A stretch of 64,000 bases of DNA from Phyllobates terribilis (taxonomy: Eukaryota), in assembly GCF_046119375.1 (NCBI RefSeq), contig NW_027362765.1, positions 386,260,001-386,324,000 of the forward strand, written 5' to 3'. Under the pieces are notes generated by a model that was given only the letters and a program-made list of their open reading frames with translations, was not told where the DNA came from and searched no databases. Shown here one piece after another: positions 13,876 through 22,737 of this stretch. A program made the translations under genes and the position numbers. Each line of letters opens with the position of its first letter. Position 1 is the stretch's first letter.

Positions 13876-14805
13876 CTAACAAAACAATTGTTTCTTTATT
13901 CTGCAAAGAGCTTTCTTCACCTCCTGATTTTTCAAGCTGTAAATGAGAGGGTTGAGCATTGGAATGACTCCGGCATACAATATGGCAAACACCTTGTCCT
14001 GGTCCATGGAATAGCTGGACTTTGGTCTCATGTACATGCCGAGGACCATTCCATAAAACAGGAGGATGACTGTGAGGTGTGAGGAGCAGGTGGAGAAGGT
14101 TTTGTGTCTTCCTTCTTTTGAGTTAATCTTCAAGATGGTAGAGATGATATAGATGTAAGACACCAAGGTCATAGTTGAAGGAAAAAAGGCGATGATGACA
14201 CTCGGTCCAAGTATTACTGTTTCTATGGTCCGTGTGTCACTACAAGAAAGTTTTATAAGAGGCTTCATATCACAAAATAAATGGTCAATTTCATTTGATT
14301 GACAAAATGTACAAGATGATATTAGAATAGCATAAAGAATGCCCTCGATGACGCCTATACTCCAAGATGTCCATGCCATCCAGAAACAGACCTGCTGGCT
14401 CATGAAATAAGAGTAACGTAGGGGATGACAGATGGCCACGTAACGATCGTAAGCCATGGCAGCCAGGATGAAGTATTCCGACACCATGAGCACCACAAAA
14501 AAGAAAACCTGAGAGATACAACCATGGTAGGAGATGACATTGTTCCCAGTTAGAAACATGTCCAATAACTTTGGTAGAACCATTGAGGTGAAGGACATAT
14601 CCAATACTGACATGTTACACAGGAGTATATACATGGGACTGTGGAAGTGAGGATCAAAGCAAAATAGAACAGTCGTTAATGAATTTCCAACCAATGTTGT
14701 TACATAGATGACCAGAAATATGAAAAATAAAACCAACTGGAAGTCTGGAAGATCATGGAAGCCGAGGAGAACAAATTCAGAAATGCTGAAATTTTGCACC
14801 TTCAT
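13876..14805 (-). CDS. Olfactory receptor (class II/gamma type), intact, 309 aa (OR-1)
   Basis: Single-exon 7TM ORF with GN (TM1), PMYILL, MAYDRYVAICHPLRY, FCD, KTFSTCSSHL, PMLNPLIYSLKN and an N-terminal NFS sequon. Confidence 0.97.
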   Translation of the reverse strand: MKVQNFSISEFVLLGFHDLPDFQLVLFFIFLVIYVTTLVGNSLTTVLFCFDPHFHSPMYILLCNMSVLDMSFTSMVLPKLLDMFLTGNNVISYHGCISQVFFFVVLMVSEYFILAAMAYDRYVAICHPLRYSYFMSQQVCFWMAWTSWSIGVIEGILYAILISSCTFCQSNEIDHLFCDMKPLIKLSCSDTRTIETVILGPSVIIAFFPSTMTLVSYIYIISTILKINSKEGRHKTFSTCSSHLTVILLFYGMVLGMYMRPKSSYSMDQDKVFAILYAGVIPMLNPLIYSLKNQEVKKALCRIKKQLFC

Positions 14806-15640: not shown

Positions 15641-15958
15641 CCGTTTCGCTACCTAAGGCTCGGTATGTTTGTCTCTATATAACTCTCTGATTTATGGGAA
15701 TTTACCTCTCCTTGGACGCATCCGTGTTTCAGAGAATATGTAGCATAGTTGGAGTCTGGACTAGTCTGTCGCTGCCCCGGCCGGCTTCTCCCTGCAACAC
15801 TTTGGGTGATTGATTGGTCTCTCTTTCTGGATAACACCTGTCAACAGGGGCGTAATTATCGTTGTCGCAGAGGGTGCGAACAGGCCCATGCGGGAGGGGG
15901 GCCTGCCGACACCAGCCCCTATTTTGGTTGGATAAGCATCGGGGGATGTAGGGTGCCA

Positions 15959-16074
15959 GCCTCTGATTGACTGGCGGCATGTATTGCAGTGCAGGGAGAT
16001 GGCGGGTCTTTGCACTGTAATACATTTCAGCCATCTCCCTGCACTGCAATACATGCCGCCAGTCAATCAGAGGC
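15959..16074. repeat. Perfect 45-bp inverted repeat with 26-nt loop (MITE interior)
   Basis: 15959-16003 is the exact reverse complement of 16030-16074. Confidence 0.9.
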
Positions 16075-16242
16075 CGGCAGCCTCCATCCGTGTGCTTGTC
16101 ACGGGTGGCGCATGGCAGTGATGTTACACACCGCTCGTAGCTGGTATGGCGAAGTCACGAGCCTGCATCTGCGCCAGCTATAGAGGAGGATGCTGCACAT
16201 CGTTGGAGTGGGAGAAGGTAAAAATAATCTTTATTTTTTTAA

Positions 16243-16749
16243 ATCAACAAAAAAACGAAAGCTAAATCAGCCCAGTTTCAAAGGAAGATATAAACACAAT
16301 CATTAAAATAAATAGTTTTTATTTCCATTCAATTTAAAAAGTTATTTTGTTAAAATATTGGTACTTTCAAAATAAAAAAAAGTCAAATCTCAATCACAAC
16401 CTATGTTATTACGGTAAATTTTCTCCATAAATATAGTTAACAATATTAGAATACTCAAATATCCAATTCTATTGTACCCATTCCTTGATAATAAAGTGCT
16501 GAAAGGAATTTTTTATTTTTTGCCCGAGATTGTTAATATTCTAATATTGTTAACTATATTTATGGAGAAAATTTATCGTAATAACATAGGTTCTTGATTG
16601 AGATTTGACTTTTTTTGATTTTGAAAGTACCAATATTTTAACAAGAAAAACTTTTTTAATTGAATGGAAATAAAAACTATTTATTTTAATGATTGTGTTT
16701 ATATCTTCCTTTGAAACTGGGCTGATTTAGCTTTAGTTTTTTTGTTGAT
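16243..16749. repeat. AT-rich foldback element, ~211-bp inverted arms
   Basis: 16243-16453 is a near-perfect reverse complement of 16537-16749, with an ~83-bp spacer. Confidence 0.9.
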
Positions 16750-16835
16750 ATGAAACCTTGAACGGGAAGTTGTAATTTATATTTGACCTCTTTCTTGATA
16801 TATATTTTTTTTAAATGTGTTGGAGAAGAGCGGAA

Positions 16836-17225
16836 AATGGGGGACATTATTACTGGAAGGGGCTCAGGAAGGGAAACATTATACAAGGATGGGAGACATT
16901 ATTACTGGAAGGGGCCCAGGATGGAGGACAGTATACCAGGATGGGGGACATTATTACTTGAAGGGGCTCAGGAAGTGGGACATTATTGCAGGAAGGGGCC
17001 CAGGATGGGATACCTCAAACCAGGAAGGGGTATAGGATGGGGGAAAATATTACTGAAAGGGGCCCTGGATTGCAGACATTACTAAAATTGGCCCAGGATG
17101 GAGGACATTATACCAGGAACGTGCCAAGGATGGGGGAGATTATTACATGGACGGGTTCATGATGGGGGACATTACAGAAAGGTGTTAGAATTGGGGAGAT
17201 TATTACTGGATGGGAGATATTATTT
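16836..17225. repeat. Degenerate ~32-bp minisatellite (GGGGACATTATTACTGGAAGGGGCCCAGGATG)
   Basis: About a dozen imperfect tandem copies; the overlapping ORFs are repeat artefacts. Confidence 0.85.
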
Positions 17226-17530
17226 CATGGGGGAGGGCAACACGTATGTCTTTATAAGATCTAGAACACTACAAGCGCCCATACACCTGACCAACATGTA
17301 TGTGGGGGTCCAGGTCCAAATTTTGCACAGGTTACACCATTAATTGTTAATCACCTCTAGCAGTGCTGGGAAGAACTGCACCAGTCTCATCTCCTTCTAT
17401 GGTACCTGGCCAGATATTTTCAGAAGATTTCAGAGAAAGATATACGGATCTGATTCATGCAGCCCGTGGTTCGAGCAGCATGAATCAGATAACAGATTCC
17501 CTTTAATATTTGTAAACTTGTAAACTGTTG

Positions 17531-17939
17531 CACCTAAAAAGAGATGCTATCTCTAAATTTGACAAGATATGGGGTCTATGGATTGATGGCTCTGGTTTGA
17601 CATCTAGGAAAGTGAGGAGATTTCGCCTCGGCTTGCTTTGAGTTACGTTTATATGATGCCTCAAATTAAACTTCTTTCAAAATTAATAAAAAGGTTATTA
17701 ATAATTCCACAAATTATATGTAATTGGATTGACTATTGTTACTATGTTCAAATATTTGCGCTGGTTTTGCAGAGCCAAGATGTATAAATAACTCGTGTTT
17801 AATGCTTCTTAAGGTTGGGAGGTGGAGACCTGTTTCTCCAATGTTTGTCTGGTTGTTGTTGTTTTTTCCTTTTTTTATTTTTTCCTTTGTGTAAATCTTT
17901 ATAAAAATCAATAAAAAAAAATTGATTTAAAAAAAAAAA
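17531..17939 (+). mobile_element. 5'-truncated L1-clade LINE (ORF2 end, 3'UTR, polyA)
   Basis: Starts with ORF2 C-terminus KRDAISKFDKIWGLW and ends AATAAA...poly(A); TTGTAAACTGTTG is duplicated on both sides as TSD. Confidence 0.75.
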
Positions 17940-18870
17940 TATTTGTAAACTGTTGAATTATATACTTTTTATGCATTGGTGGGTTCTGGGAGCGACTTAC
18001 CTCAAAATCAGGACTTTCTAAGTGTATGTGCACACATTGAGTATTTTCAGCAGATTTTTCTGCACAAAAACAGGATTTTGGTAGTTTTTTAGGTGTTTTT
18101 ATGTGCTTTTTCCCATTTTATTTGAAGGGGTGAAAAACGCTAAAAATGTCGAAATTTGGAAAAAAGAAACAAAATTGGTTTGTGTCACCATTTTCTGAGA
18201 CCCATAACTCTTCTGTATTTCAATCGTTGGAACTGAAGGCTCGTTTTATGAGAGGTGAGCTGCAGTTATTATTGGTATTTTGGGGGCACATATGACGCTT
18301 ACTGTTGCAGCTTGATAGATTTGACTTCTCCAGATGTGGCAATATCAAATATGTTTTTCTTTCATTATTTTAACTAGAGGTGGGTATTTACATTTTTATG
18401 TTTGTTCGTGTTGTTTTTTTTCTTTGTCTTTTTTTTTCATATTAATATATTTTTTTTCTTTTTGCTTAATTTATCAGTCCCTATTGGGGACTTTGGGAAC
18501 CTGTTCTGATCTCTTGTTCTATCTGCTGCAATGACACATTAATACAGTTCATAGTGAATACCCCCTATGCCTGTCGCTCGGCTTCATAGGTGGACCAGGA
18601 TGGCAGTGACCTATTGTTATATAACCTAAGGGAAAGAGGGAAAAAGGGAACGTCACCTCACCACATCATCTTATTGCTGTGTAGCCAGGAAATCCTCAGT
18701 AGTATTGGCCCAAAGACGTCCTAATCTGGAACGTAGGTACGAAATTCAGAAAAAAGAGAGAGAGAAATCATCCAGCGAAAAAATATGTATAATATAATAT
18801 AAGTCTATATTAGTCCATGAGAAGATGATAAAAAACACGCAGATGCCTCTTAGACATCGATGGAACACAG

Positions 18871-18905
18871 ACCGACGCGTTTCAGCAGAATGCCTTAATC
18901 ATGGT
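18871..18905 (-). ncRNA. Minimal hammerhead ribozyme, A3-U8 variant (inverted pLTR copy)
   Basis: Exact reverse complement of the motif at 19395-19429. Confidence 0.7.
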
Positions 18906-19394
18906 AAGTGTGCATTGGTTGGTTTGTAGGTCAGTGTTAGTAGTTTGAACTGGATATGCTGGGGGAATGGGAGCCAGTGATGGGATCTGCAAAGGGGAGA
19001 AGCAGAGGAGTAACGATGTAAGAGATATAGCCAGGCTTTACACGGATTGTGACCGCACCTGTAAAACCCTCTCAAAGAGAGCCAAGTGGAAGAGTTATTT
19101 GACCATTTACTCTGAAAGTAGCTAGGTGACAGAATATTAGCTAATGTCGGTGCTTTAGTTGCTATAAACCTGACATCCGTTTTTTGCAAAACCGCTGCCA
19201 TTTTAGCATCTTCGCTTAACATGAGTAAGTTTCCTTCTTTCTGTCTTTCATTTATAGTCCAGTTGGTCAGTCTTTCTGATTATCTGATTAATTAGGGTTA
19301 CATTTTAGGTGAATGTGATTGCTGCTAGTTTCCCTACCCCTTCCTATACTCGTTTGTATTTCTATTAGAAAGTTTGTCAGTTTAATGCACACTT

Positions 19395-19429
19395 ACCATG
19401 ATTAAGGCATTCTGCTGAAACGCGTCGGT
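19395..19429 (+). ncRNA. Minimal hammerhead ribozyme, A3-U8 variant
   Basis: ACC-AUGAUUAA-G-GCA(UUC)UGC-U-GAA-AC(GC)GU-C-GGU: stem I ACC/GGU, stem II GCA/UGC, palindromic stem III ACGCGU, GUC cleavage triplet. Confidence 0.7.
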
Positions 19430-19791
19430 CTGTGTTCCATCGATGTCTAAGAGGCGTCTGTGTGTTTTTTTATTGTCTCCTGATGGATTAATAAAGACTT
19501 TATATTTTATTATACATATTTTTTCGCTGGATGATTTTTCTCTCTTTTTTTTTTCTGAATGACGTATTATTATGTTACTTATGGACCTCTGGTGGTCTAG
19601 AGACAAAAATAGGAAAATATTCTCACCTACAAGACCGGCTCTGCTCCTTTGCATTGCTGCCTGTGTTCCCTGCCAGTCTTATGCTCATTCCTTATTATGG
19701 AGGACGCAACTTACCAGTGACTGGCTGTAACCTCGATGTTCCATCCAAGACTGAATTAATAGTCCAACTTCTGGATAGGAAGGAAAGTTAA

Positions 19792-20035
19792 AGGGGTTGT
19801 CTGCTCCGAGGTCTGCGCCAGGACAGGAAGTGGAGACATCACCTTTCAACTAGTCGCTAAACTGCTGAGGCTTGTGATTGGCTGCAGCAGTCAGATGACT
19901 TTGATCAGCGGTCTGGTGGTTGAATGGTGATATCTTCAGTGACACAGACCACGGAGAACTGCACCGGATCCAGGTGGGTGCCAGTAGGTGAGTATTAATA
20001 AGTTTATTTTTTTATACAGTCATCTTTTATTTCCT
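19792..20035. mobile_element. TTAA-flanked T2/Kolobok-type MITE, degenerate
   Basis: TTAA-AGGGGTTGTC ... CCT-TTAA; a similar left end starts at ~21314. Confidence 0.45.
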
Positions 20036-21605
20036 TTAAGGTGCAGCCAATGAATGAAGAATGAGATGGTTAGCCGATCCAGATGAAATCGGGGTATTGG
20101 CTGATGTAATTCTATTGTGTATGGCCGCCTTTGCTCTATACAAATATATAATTCATTATCAGGACAATATCTATAACCACGGAAATCATTTTCAATGGAG
20201 AAATTCATTTCCATCTTTGAAAAAAATTGAAAAAAATTACATTCTCAGCCAACAGTTTGAAATATACTATAGCCAAGAAAAACGAACACCCGAGAGAAAT
20301 GATGAAGACGGTCCAATGAATTCTCAGTTCAATAAATCAGATGGCGGAAATCTAAGGACTCTGTGCCATGTAGATCATCATAAGTCGTCTGTTAAAGAAA
20401 AATAAATTATATATAACTTTAGTTTACTTTTTTTTTTTACCTTTTGAGCATTCAAAACCCCAAAAATACATTAAGAAAAAAATAATTGAAACTTGACGCA
20501 GAAAAGGCCTTTAAACTAATGTTAAAAAGAAAACAATCTAAAAAGAAAGTTTCCAGTCAATGGTGGGGACGGGGTTATACTGATTAGCCTGACTTGCTGG
20601 CACGAGACACCTAGTCCTGTAGTGCTAATCTCCTGCTGATAAAACACTGATTTTATTGAAACTGCAACACGGAGTCCATTAAGTGACACTTCACTTGAAT
20701 CAGGCTCTCTGTCCCTATATCATGCTGCTCTCAAATTATATATCAAAACCCTGCTGATAGTTTCCCTTTTTCTGACTATGTCTGGGTGTTCCTATAACTT
20801 TTAACTTGTGAACTCTGCTTGCAGCTGTATCTCAAGGAACATTTGATGTCTTTGAATCTTTTTCATTGTTTAGGCAAGAAAACGATAATTTCTCTGAGGT
20901 TTTGGGACCACACTCGCAAGCAAACCTCACTGCCCATAATTCCCCAGCCAGTCCGGGTATTTGATGTGTTTTTTCTTAAGCACATCTGATGCAACTAATT
21001 ATGTAGTTTGCTTGACACCTGACTTACAAATGTGTGCTGTTACGAGGGTTTATATTTAGGGGGATAAATAATTCCGAGACTGCAGTAGTTAGTGAAAATG
21101 CCATTTTATGTTGAATTTGGAGAAAAAAAATTGTTAAATTAGTTGTAATTTGCTATTTACATATGTTTCTTGCAAACAGAAGAAAGTTCTGATTGCAACT
21201 GTATAGCATAGCAATCTATCTAACATATAGAACTATAGTTATATATTTCACAAAAGCCATTTACGAATTTGTAGATCAATCATGAACGGTCTGTATATGA
21301 AACATGCATTAAAGGGGTTGTCCCAACGTAGCAAATTGTCCTCAATCCACAATTGATCATTGTGTCCCACAACGGGGCTATGAAGTGGCCCGTTCAAATT
21401 GAGCAATGGCTGCACATTCACACCACCTCTCCGGCTATTGTCTATAGGACAACTGAAGATATTGACTAAGAAAGTACTTCAGAGCTTTGTTTTTTAGATC
21501 AGTGGGGGTCCCTCCGGTGAGACCATCTAGCGGCAATCAAGTTTCACAAAGTCTGTGGATTCTCTTCTGTGAAGGTTAGGAAAGTTAGAAAAATTTTCTT
21601 AAATA

Positions 21606-22583
21606 TTAGAAAAACATGGCTTTGGTTTTTGGTTTTACATTTAACATAGTCTGATAAAATATATATTTTTTCTTTATTCTGCACAGAGCTTTCTTCACCT
21701 CCTGATTTTTCAAGCTGTAAATGAGAGGGTTGAGCATTGGAATGACTCCGGCATACAATATGGCAAACACCTTGTCCTGGTCCATGGAATAGCTGGACTT
21801 TGGTCTCATGTACATGCCGAGGACCGTTCCGTAAAACAAGAGGATGACTGTGAGGTGTGAGGAGCAGGTGGAGAAGGTTTTGTGTCTTCCTTCTTTTGAG
21901 TTAATCTTCAAGATGGTAGAGATGATATAGATGTAGGACACCAAGGTCATGACCGAGGGGACAAAGCCAATGATGACACCAAGAACAAATATTACCATTT
22001 CTATAGTCTGTGTGTCGCTACAAGAAAGCATCATTAGAGGCTTCATATCACAGAAGAGATGGTCTACTTCATTTGACCTACAAAATGTACAAGATGATAT
22101 CAGAATGATGAAGAAAATGCCCTCGAGGATTCCTATACTCCAAGATGTCCATACCATCCAGAAACAGACCTGCAGGCTCATGAAATAAGAGTAACGTAGG
22201 GGATGACAGATGGCCACGTAACGATCGTAAGCCATGGCAGCCAGGATGAAGTATTCCGACACTATGAGCACCACAAAAAAGAAAACCTGAGCGATACAAC
22301 CATGGTAGGAGATGACATTGTTCCCAGTTACAAAGATGTCCAATAACTTTGGTAGAACCATTGAGGTGAAGGACATATCCAATACTGACATGTTACACAG
22401 GAGAATATACATGGGACTGTGGAAGTGAGGATCAAAGCAAAACAGACCAGTTGTTAATGAATTTCCAAGCAACGTTGCGACATAGATGACCAGAAATATG
22501 AAAAAGAAAACCAACTGCAAGTTTGGAAGATCATGGAAGCCGAGGAGAACGAAATCAGTGACAGTGAGGTTTATTGTCTCCAT
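21606..22583 (-). CDS. Olfactory receptor (class II), intact, 325 aa from the ATG at 22583 (OR-2)
   Basis: Same OR motifs as OR-1. The ATG (METINLTV, NLT sequon) is homologous to the OR-3/OR-4 starts; the C-terminus is extended by 16 aa relative to OR-1. Confidence 0.96.
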   Translation of the reverse strand: METINLTVTDFVLLGFHDLPNLQLVFFFIFLVIYVATLLGNSLTTGLFCFDPHFHSPMYILLCNMSVLDMSFTSMVLPKLLDIFVTGNNVISYHGCIAQVFFFVVLIVSEYFILAAMAYDRYVAICHPLRYSYFMSLQVCFWMVWTSWSIGILEGIFFIILISSCTFCRSNEVDHLFCDMKPLMMLSCSDTQTIEMVIFVLGVIIGFVPSVMTLVSYIYIISTILKINSKEGRHKTFSTCSSHLTVILLFYGTVLGMYMRPKSSYSMDQDKVFAILYAGVIPMLNPLIYSLKNQEVKKALCRIKKKYIFYQTMLNVKPKTKAMFF

Positions 22584-22737
22584 TACCCTCTGATGAGACA
22601 AGTATTTTTTGTGCTGATCAGAGATTCGTGACGTTGCATGAATGTCTTATAGGGAACAGAGGATCTCTATGGTGGATTTATACAATGTGTATCTAAGGAG
22701 AGTTCACTTTGGAGATTTAAGGTGTTGATTTGTAAAG

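Follow-up and report, generated by a model that had tools for sequence, protein, structure and literature searches.

The window (the whole 64,000-nt stretch of Phyllobates terribilis DNA analyzed here) contains, at approximately positions 18626–19566, a Penelope insertion that is decayed, 5'-inverted, and, as judged from its sequence, Neptune-like. This insertion carries two copies of a minimal hammerhead ribozyme motif in which the core bases C3 and G8 are replaced by A3 and U8. The most probable reading is that this swap, common to an entire branch of related elements, keeps the tertiary 3-8 pair of the ribozyme and allows slow cleavage after position 17 in dimers held together by a palindrome.

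The Hammerhead Motif

The 35-nt motif with A3 and U8 is present in both inverted pseudo-LTRs, as the preliminary description had reported, in two identical copies read directly from the sequence. One is located at 18871..18905 on the minus strand (predicted cut after C17 at 18874), the other at 19395..19429 on the plus strand (A3 at 19398, U8 at 19403, C17 at 19426). Each copy consists of stem I (ACC/GGU), the core AUGAUUA followed by one extra A, stem II (GGCA/UGCU with a UUC loop), and a 3' part formed by GAA, the palindrome ACGCGU, and C17. Stem II had been given as GCA/UGC; these pairs are present, but the stem is one pair longer and starts with a G10.1-U11.1 wobble. Folding allows four further stem I pairs past a 2 × 2 loop; in the plus-strand copy this distal stem I is formed by 19389–19392 with 19432–19435 (+).

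The motif matches the minimal type I hammerheads of Penelope-like elements (PLEs) at U4, G5, A6, A9, G12, A13, A14, A15.1-U16.1, and H17, and the minimal architecture proposed earlier is supported. Since it lacks C3 and G8 of the CUGANGA core, reading AUGAUUA instead, and at the same time retains a Watson-Crick combination at positions 3 and 8, it is a variant of these hammerheads rather than a plain member. A scan of 17000–21500 against Rfam yielded no hammerhead family among six weak matches (E up to 10), consistent with the claim that searches of the CUGANGA type overlook the motif. The monomer fold of 19393–19435 is no better than that of shuffled sequences (z 0.55), which is expected and uninformative, as the motif has no helix III in the monomer. 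The self-duplex of ACGCGU is assigned -7.5 kcal/mol, the palindrome itself being fixed by the descriptor used in the genome search.

Anatomy of the Insertion

The left pseudo-LTR is full-length (about 290 bp, 18626..18916, sense on the minus strand): blastn alignments to family copies reach 18618–18633, and the copies diverge at about 18626–18630. Hence the left boundary does not lie at 18735, where it had been placed. Adjacent to it, in the place of the endonuclease region, is a 110-bp scrap of a LINE-type reverse-transcriptase element (18914..19024, minus strand) with an 83% match to L094:393-503, whose frame matches RVT_1 at 5e-30; we take this scrap to be L2-like. It is followed by a remnant of the Penelope linker between reverse transcriptase and endonuclease, including part of the Cys motif (19025..19230, minus strand; 82% DNA match to the related element L083). 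The remnant is 43% identical over 67 aa to the intact protein of another relative, L197, and keeps the first two cysteines. The inverted segment comprises the 3' UTR of the element (19231..19383, plus strand; blastn to L006, L082, and L083) and a truncated pseudo-LTR (19384..19566, plus strand), inverted with respect to the left one and 91% identical to it. An AT-rich weak candidate for a target-site duplication is formed by 18612..18625 (+) and 19565–19578, with 11 of 14 letters shared and a longest exact common word of 6 nt.

This mapping of family copies supports the earlier identification of a Penelope-like remnant with inverted pseudo-LTRs. A non-LTR retrozyme, composed of head-to-tail non-coding units, was considered and rejected, as the two copies in the window lie in inverted orientation with a coding remnant between them. 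The insertion is old and broken: its arms (18738–18916 and 19384–19566) differ at 17 of 183 columns, and family copies are 70–92% alike. The first 72 arm columns, motif included, are identical, a run of that length being seen in 0.3% of shuffles; gene conversion between the inverted arms is possible, as is chance.

The linker remnant is all that the window copy keeps of the coding part, and a Pfam search of the window frame returned no families. In L083, this linker is followed by a GIY-YIG domain (E 1e-4), and the hammerhead motif lies in sense orientation about 310 nt downstream. L197 encodes 834 aa in a single frame, with matches below the Pfam cut-offs to both RVT_1 (E 2e-6) and GIY-YIG (E 0.01). 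The linker of both elements reads C-x4-C-x2-C, and a CX2-5CxxC linker between the two domains defines the Neptune/Nematis type, according to the available text of PMC8557442. Thus, the Cys linker, rather than a tree with named references, points to this type. Among named proteins, the nearest relatives come from frogs (49–53%).

Near the 3' end of the left pseudo-LTR (18650–18675, minus strand), an ATG is followed by a donor-like word GTGAG; GGTGAG is kept in most family copies, possibly as the end of a first exon and the start of an intron. Elsewhere in the window, the element lies between two paralogous single-exon frames (13876–14805 and 21606–22646, both on the minus strand), presumably olfactory receptor-like judging by their motifs. 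Further repeats are present at 15944–16089, 16237–16755, and 16836–17214: two of the fold-back type and one degenerate tandem array of 32/52 bp.

Because the two motifs lie on opposite strands and point in opposite directions, away from each other, any one transcript contains a sense copy together with an antisense one, and a tandem dimer is ruled out at this locus. Folding of 18619–19566 predicts that in read-through RNA all 35 bases of the motif pair with the antisense copy, base for base; the dimer action suggested in the preliminary description does not apply here. Given this arrangement and the predicted pairing, this locus, an ordinary dead copy of the transposon, probably does not act as a ribozyme.

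The Variant in the Family and the Clade

The 10.6-Gb genome was searched for family members with the part of the pseudo-LTR downstream of the motif, yielding 35 segments from 30 loci. As the query does not contain the core, it introduces no bias toward any core letters. Both positions could be scored in 21 segments, the other 14 being truncated or deleted at 3 or 8: 18 are A3-U8 (two of them the window's own arms), and single segments are C3-G8, U-U, and A-A, the last being a misalignment at a junction. In a search with a family-like pattern in which positions 3, 7, and 8 were left free, A3-U8 was observed in 39 of 48 matches. Hence the family is not mostly C3-G8, and the suggestion that A3-U8 is a family-level variant rather than decay is borne out; in fact, it holds at the level of the clade. 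The identity of the two arms, previously offered as a sign of this, carries no such evidence: the arms share private letters and therefore derive from a single insertion. The one C3-G8 segment, L115, coincides with L016 (G000:C2:902786321-902786380); this window-family copy differs at exactly both paired sites.

Most window-family copies begin at the motif's 5' edge. Three of the 35 start 3–6 nt past the cut site, one of them apparently by deletion; copy ends at the cut site, which would be a sign of cleavage in vivo, were not clearly found among these segments. Seven loci (L008, L013, L016, L018, L026, L073, and L080) have head-to-head inversion junctions within or just before stem I and the start of the core, and these junctions do not fall at the cut site.

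One might suppose that some overlapping constraint, independent of the ribozyme fold, keeps A3 and U8 fixed, since in the window family the antisense strand reads ATG and then GTAAGT across stem I, and inversion junctions are often centered near CATG, a palindrome that could aid fold-back priming. This seems very improbable: U8, which covaries with A3, is part of neither feature, and other A3-U8 families differ in the letters of stem I. The antisense splice donor in particular is rejected as the cause of A3, as these families do not have it.

The clade was surveyed by a protein search with the linker and endonuclease of L083, for which 20 regions were fetched. A3-U8 occurs in every one of the 16 endonuclease relatives whose downstream motif could be detected, at protein identities of 50–100%; nine more have no motif within about 2 kb, and the motif of L159 sits on an inverted piece. 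Nine C3-G8 elements, 31–35% identical to L197, are separated by a branch with 100% support from the A3-U8 elements, with which 10 unlabelled or doubtful rows are grouped. This is a quick, midpoint-rooted tree of elements from this genome only, containing no U3-A8 elements. Its simplest reading is a single origin of the swap, although the A3-U8 rows were chosen as the nearest relatives of the window's family; selection may then have maintained it.

Covariation was assessed on 47 stem II strings, all distinct. Pairs 2 and 3 of stem I are each formed in 39 of them, and pairs 2, 3, and 4 of stem II in 43, 44, and 35, respectively, with several pair types in both stems. Four of these five values are reached in none of 2000 shuffles and that of stem I pair 2 in 13, the shuffles taking no account of relatedness. 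Position N7 takes all four letters, and the extra base after A9 is A in 45 strings. Position 17 is C in 25, U in 14, and A in 8, and when it was left free in the element search, no A3-U8 match had G17. The 10.1-11.1 pair is G-U in 24 strings, including that of the window, and G-C in 16; part of the G-U may be CpG decay.

One A3-U8 sister family is young. It contains 214 exact copies of the 30-nt motif, its copies are 98–99% alike, and its member L197 has the unbroken 834-codon frame with reverse transcriptase and GIY-YIG matches. The variant is therefore compatible with recent transposition. Contigs from four sequencing runs, in which transcript ends and expression are invisible, cover the young-family motif with no differing letter listed; among the sequencing runs listed for this family, none is of RNA. 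In the L197 motif, position 17 is U, a base that might pair with A3 in the manner of the C3-G17 trap; in addition, the 5' strand of its stem I complements core positions 5–9a, a possible alternative hairpin. The window motif, having C17, shares neither feature. About 26 near-identical copies of an element of the A3-U8 clade, spaced roughly 180–190 kb apart at G000:C12:198.6-201.3 Mb and on C337, suggest a very large tandem segmental array.

Genome-Wide Counts of the 3-8 Pair

The genome descriptor, with C2.1, UGA, A9, GAAACGCGU, H17, and G1.1 fixed, has 17,665 matches genome-wide and 20 in the reversed control. Among these, A3-U8 accounts for 1,304 matches (three in controls), U3-A8 for 1,453, and G3-C8 for three, at least one of them offset; as the fixed C2.1 places G3 within a CpG, some G3-C8 may be hidden. 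The remainder of 14,423, obtained by subtraction rather than by direct count, is mostly C3-G8, as are 79 of the first 100 rows listed. A3 occurs with a base other than U8 in 334 matches and U8 with a base other than A3 in 148, both counts being upper bounds because they include offset matches. Thus, 90% of U8 motifs have A3, and 80% of A3 motifs have U8. Independence predicts 135 A3-U8 matches; the odds ratio is about 420, which does not measure the number of events, as the copies are related.

A trivial explanation, by which both changes arose through decay of a single old insertion or the motif matches by chance, fits the age and broken state of the window copy (arms 91% alike, family copies 70–92%). 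It is hardly credible in view of 1,304 matches against three in controls, spread over many families, and of 214 identical copies in the young one. By these sequence counts, A3-U8 is neither decay nor chance. Outside this genome, the A3-U8 pattern has no match in viral contigs; of 21 matches in metagenome contigs, none has both an extended stem I and a stem II, and they were therefore taken as chance.

Possible Mode of Action

In the hammerhead, C3 makes a tertiary Watson-Crick pair with G8, as stated in the available text of PMC3884650 and PMC8495972, and A3-U8 would replace it while keeping that contact, to judge by the known structure. Two motifs, supplied by head-to-tail copies or by two transcripts, would pair through the ACGCGU palindrome, and the resulting dimer would slowly cleave itself after position 17. 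PLE minimal motifs have no helix III as monomers; according to the accessible parts of PMC4209133, monomers are uncut and dimers are cut weakly. Natural head-to-tail A3-U8 tandems do exist, with periods of 43 nt (L098:1501-1572) and 42 nt (L054:1533-1743) and with junctions in stem I. Three tandem window-family units of about 400 bp with partly decayed motifs form a retrozyme-like array in L084 (G000:C10:131002461-131003418).

An alternative that we consider rather unlikely is that the A3-U8 motif keeps the hammerhead shape, hardly cuts, and is conserved as a folded cis signal, e.g., for reverse transcriptase pausing, fold-back, or template jump, or as a protein-binding site. When a type III hammerhead was put through a full double-mutant scan, the 3-8 pair was rescued by the G-C swap alone, and all other mutants at this pair were low (PMC9901934, part of the text), and PLE minimal motifs are generally low in vitro (PMC4209133, available sections). 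Nor is the active dimer the fold of lowest energy: the double hammerhead is predicted to lie above the best alternative by 3.6 kcal/mol for the window motif in trans and by 5.1 kcal/mol for the L098 tandem. The clustering of inversion and truncation points at the motif 5' edge would also agree with a signal of this kind. It explains poorly, however, why positions 3 and 8 are Watson-Crick in three pair types across families while N7 is free, and why no A3-U8 match has G17 when that position is left free. Slow cleavage of palindrome-linked dimers is thus the reading we prefer. That some Penelope clades thrive without hammerheads (PMC8557442, in the portions available) has to be kept in mind. The G-U wobble at 10.1-11.1 and the copy ends, which do not mark the cut site, also speak against cleavage.

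G3-C8, the sole rescuing swap in the available account of that scan (PMC9901934), is nearly absent from this genome (three matches). Much more tentatively, C-G, U-A, and A-U could each be fixed in Penelope clades of one amphibian genome and G-C absent, nearly the reverse of the in vitro ranking, with the A-U branch, its recently active family included, using a deliberately weakened core as a dimer-gated timer. A slow cut would then let full-length transposon RNA be made and copied first.

A3-U8 is a third natural Watson-Crick state at a core pair of the best-studied ribozyme, observed at the scale of a clade and not as a one-off. Descriptors of the CUGANGA type and Rfam miss about 7% (A3-U8) plus 8% (U3-A8) of descriptor-matching motifs in this genome. 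The young, coding-intact family and the natural 43-nt tandem constitute a ready test set for whether, and how fast, Penelope hammerheads must cut for transposition. Small PLE hammerheads cleaving as dimers, i.e., the same element class and the same dimer mode, are reportedly the subject of a 2017 study by Lunse, Weinberg, and Breaker, to go by its title.

Comparison with Known Systems

No report of natural A3-U8 was found by wording searches of the literature, in which figures are unsearchable and key hammerhead papers fall outside the scope, so that novelty in print is unproven. The available text of bioRxiv 10.64898/2026.07.22.740005, PMC6155905, and PMC10085705 contains nothing bearing on it. 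What is already in print, in the portions available, is U3-A8, both in nature (PMC3088659) and in PLEs (PMC4209133).

The closest counterparts are the PLE minimal type I hammerheads (Cervera and De la Pena, 2014; PMC4209133). As described in the available text, they share with the window motif the location in a pseudo-LTR, the short helix I, the extra base between positions 9 and 10.1, and the palindromic helix III, and they are likewise thought to act as dimers; a further copy at the 5' end, on the opposite strand, is described too. Families with U3-A8 are reported there for Schistosoma, with about 1,300 matches. U3-A8 is the only exchange named in that text, and the available rows of Fig. 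S3 begin with CUGA or UUGA, a comparison that does not include the Xenopus and Latimeria families of Fig. S4, whereas the window motif has A3-U8. It also differs by G10.1-U11.1 in place of their G-C. Natural 3-8 covariation from C3-G8 to U3-A8, which follows the same principle, was described by Perreault et al. (2011; PMC3088659). A3-U8 is unnamed in the part of that paper available, whereas in this genome it is fixed throughout a transposon clade, in over a thousand copies.

The host element resembles the endonuclease-containing (EN+) PLEs of the Neptune/Nematis type (Craig et al., 2021; PMC8557442), which, in the accessible text, have reverse transcriptase, a CX2-5CxxC linker, and, C-terminally, a GIY-YIG domain in one frame, as do L083 and L197. 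In contrast, the window copy retains the linker remnant alone, and its clade is assigned by the linker motif. Inverted 5'-truncated copies that produce inverted pseudo-LTRs are described in the available parts of PMC8557442 and, for Pen2a_Av, PMC3846280. In these elements, as in the window, foreign DNA has been captured between the pseudo-LTRs.
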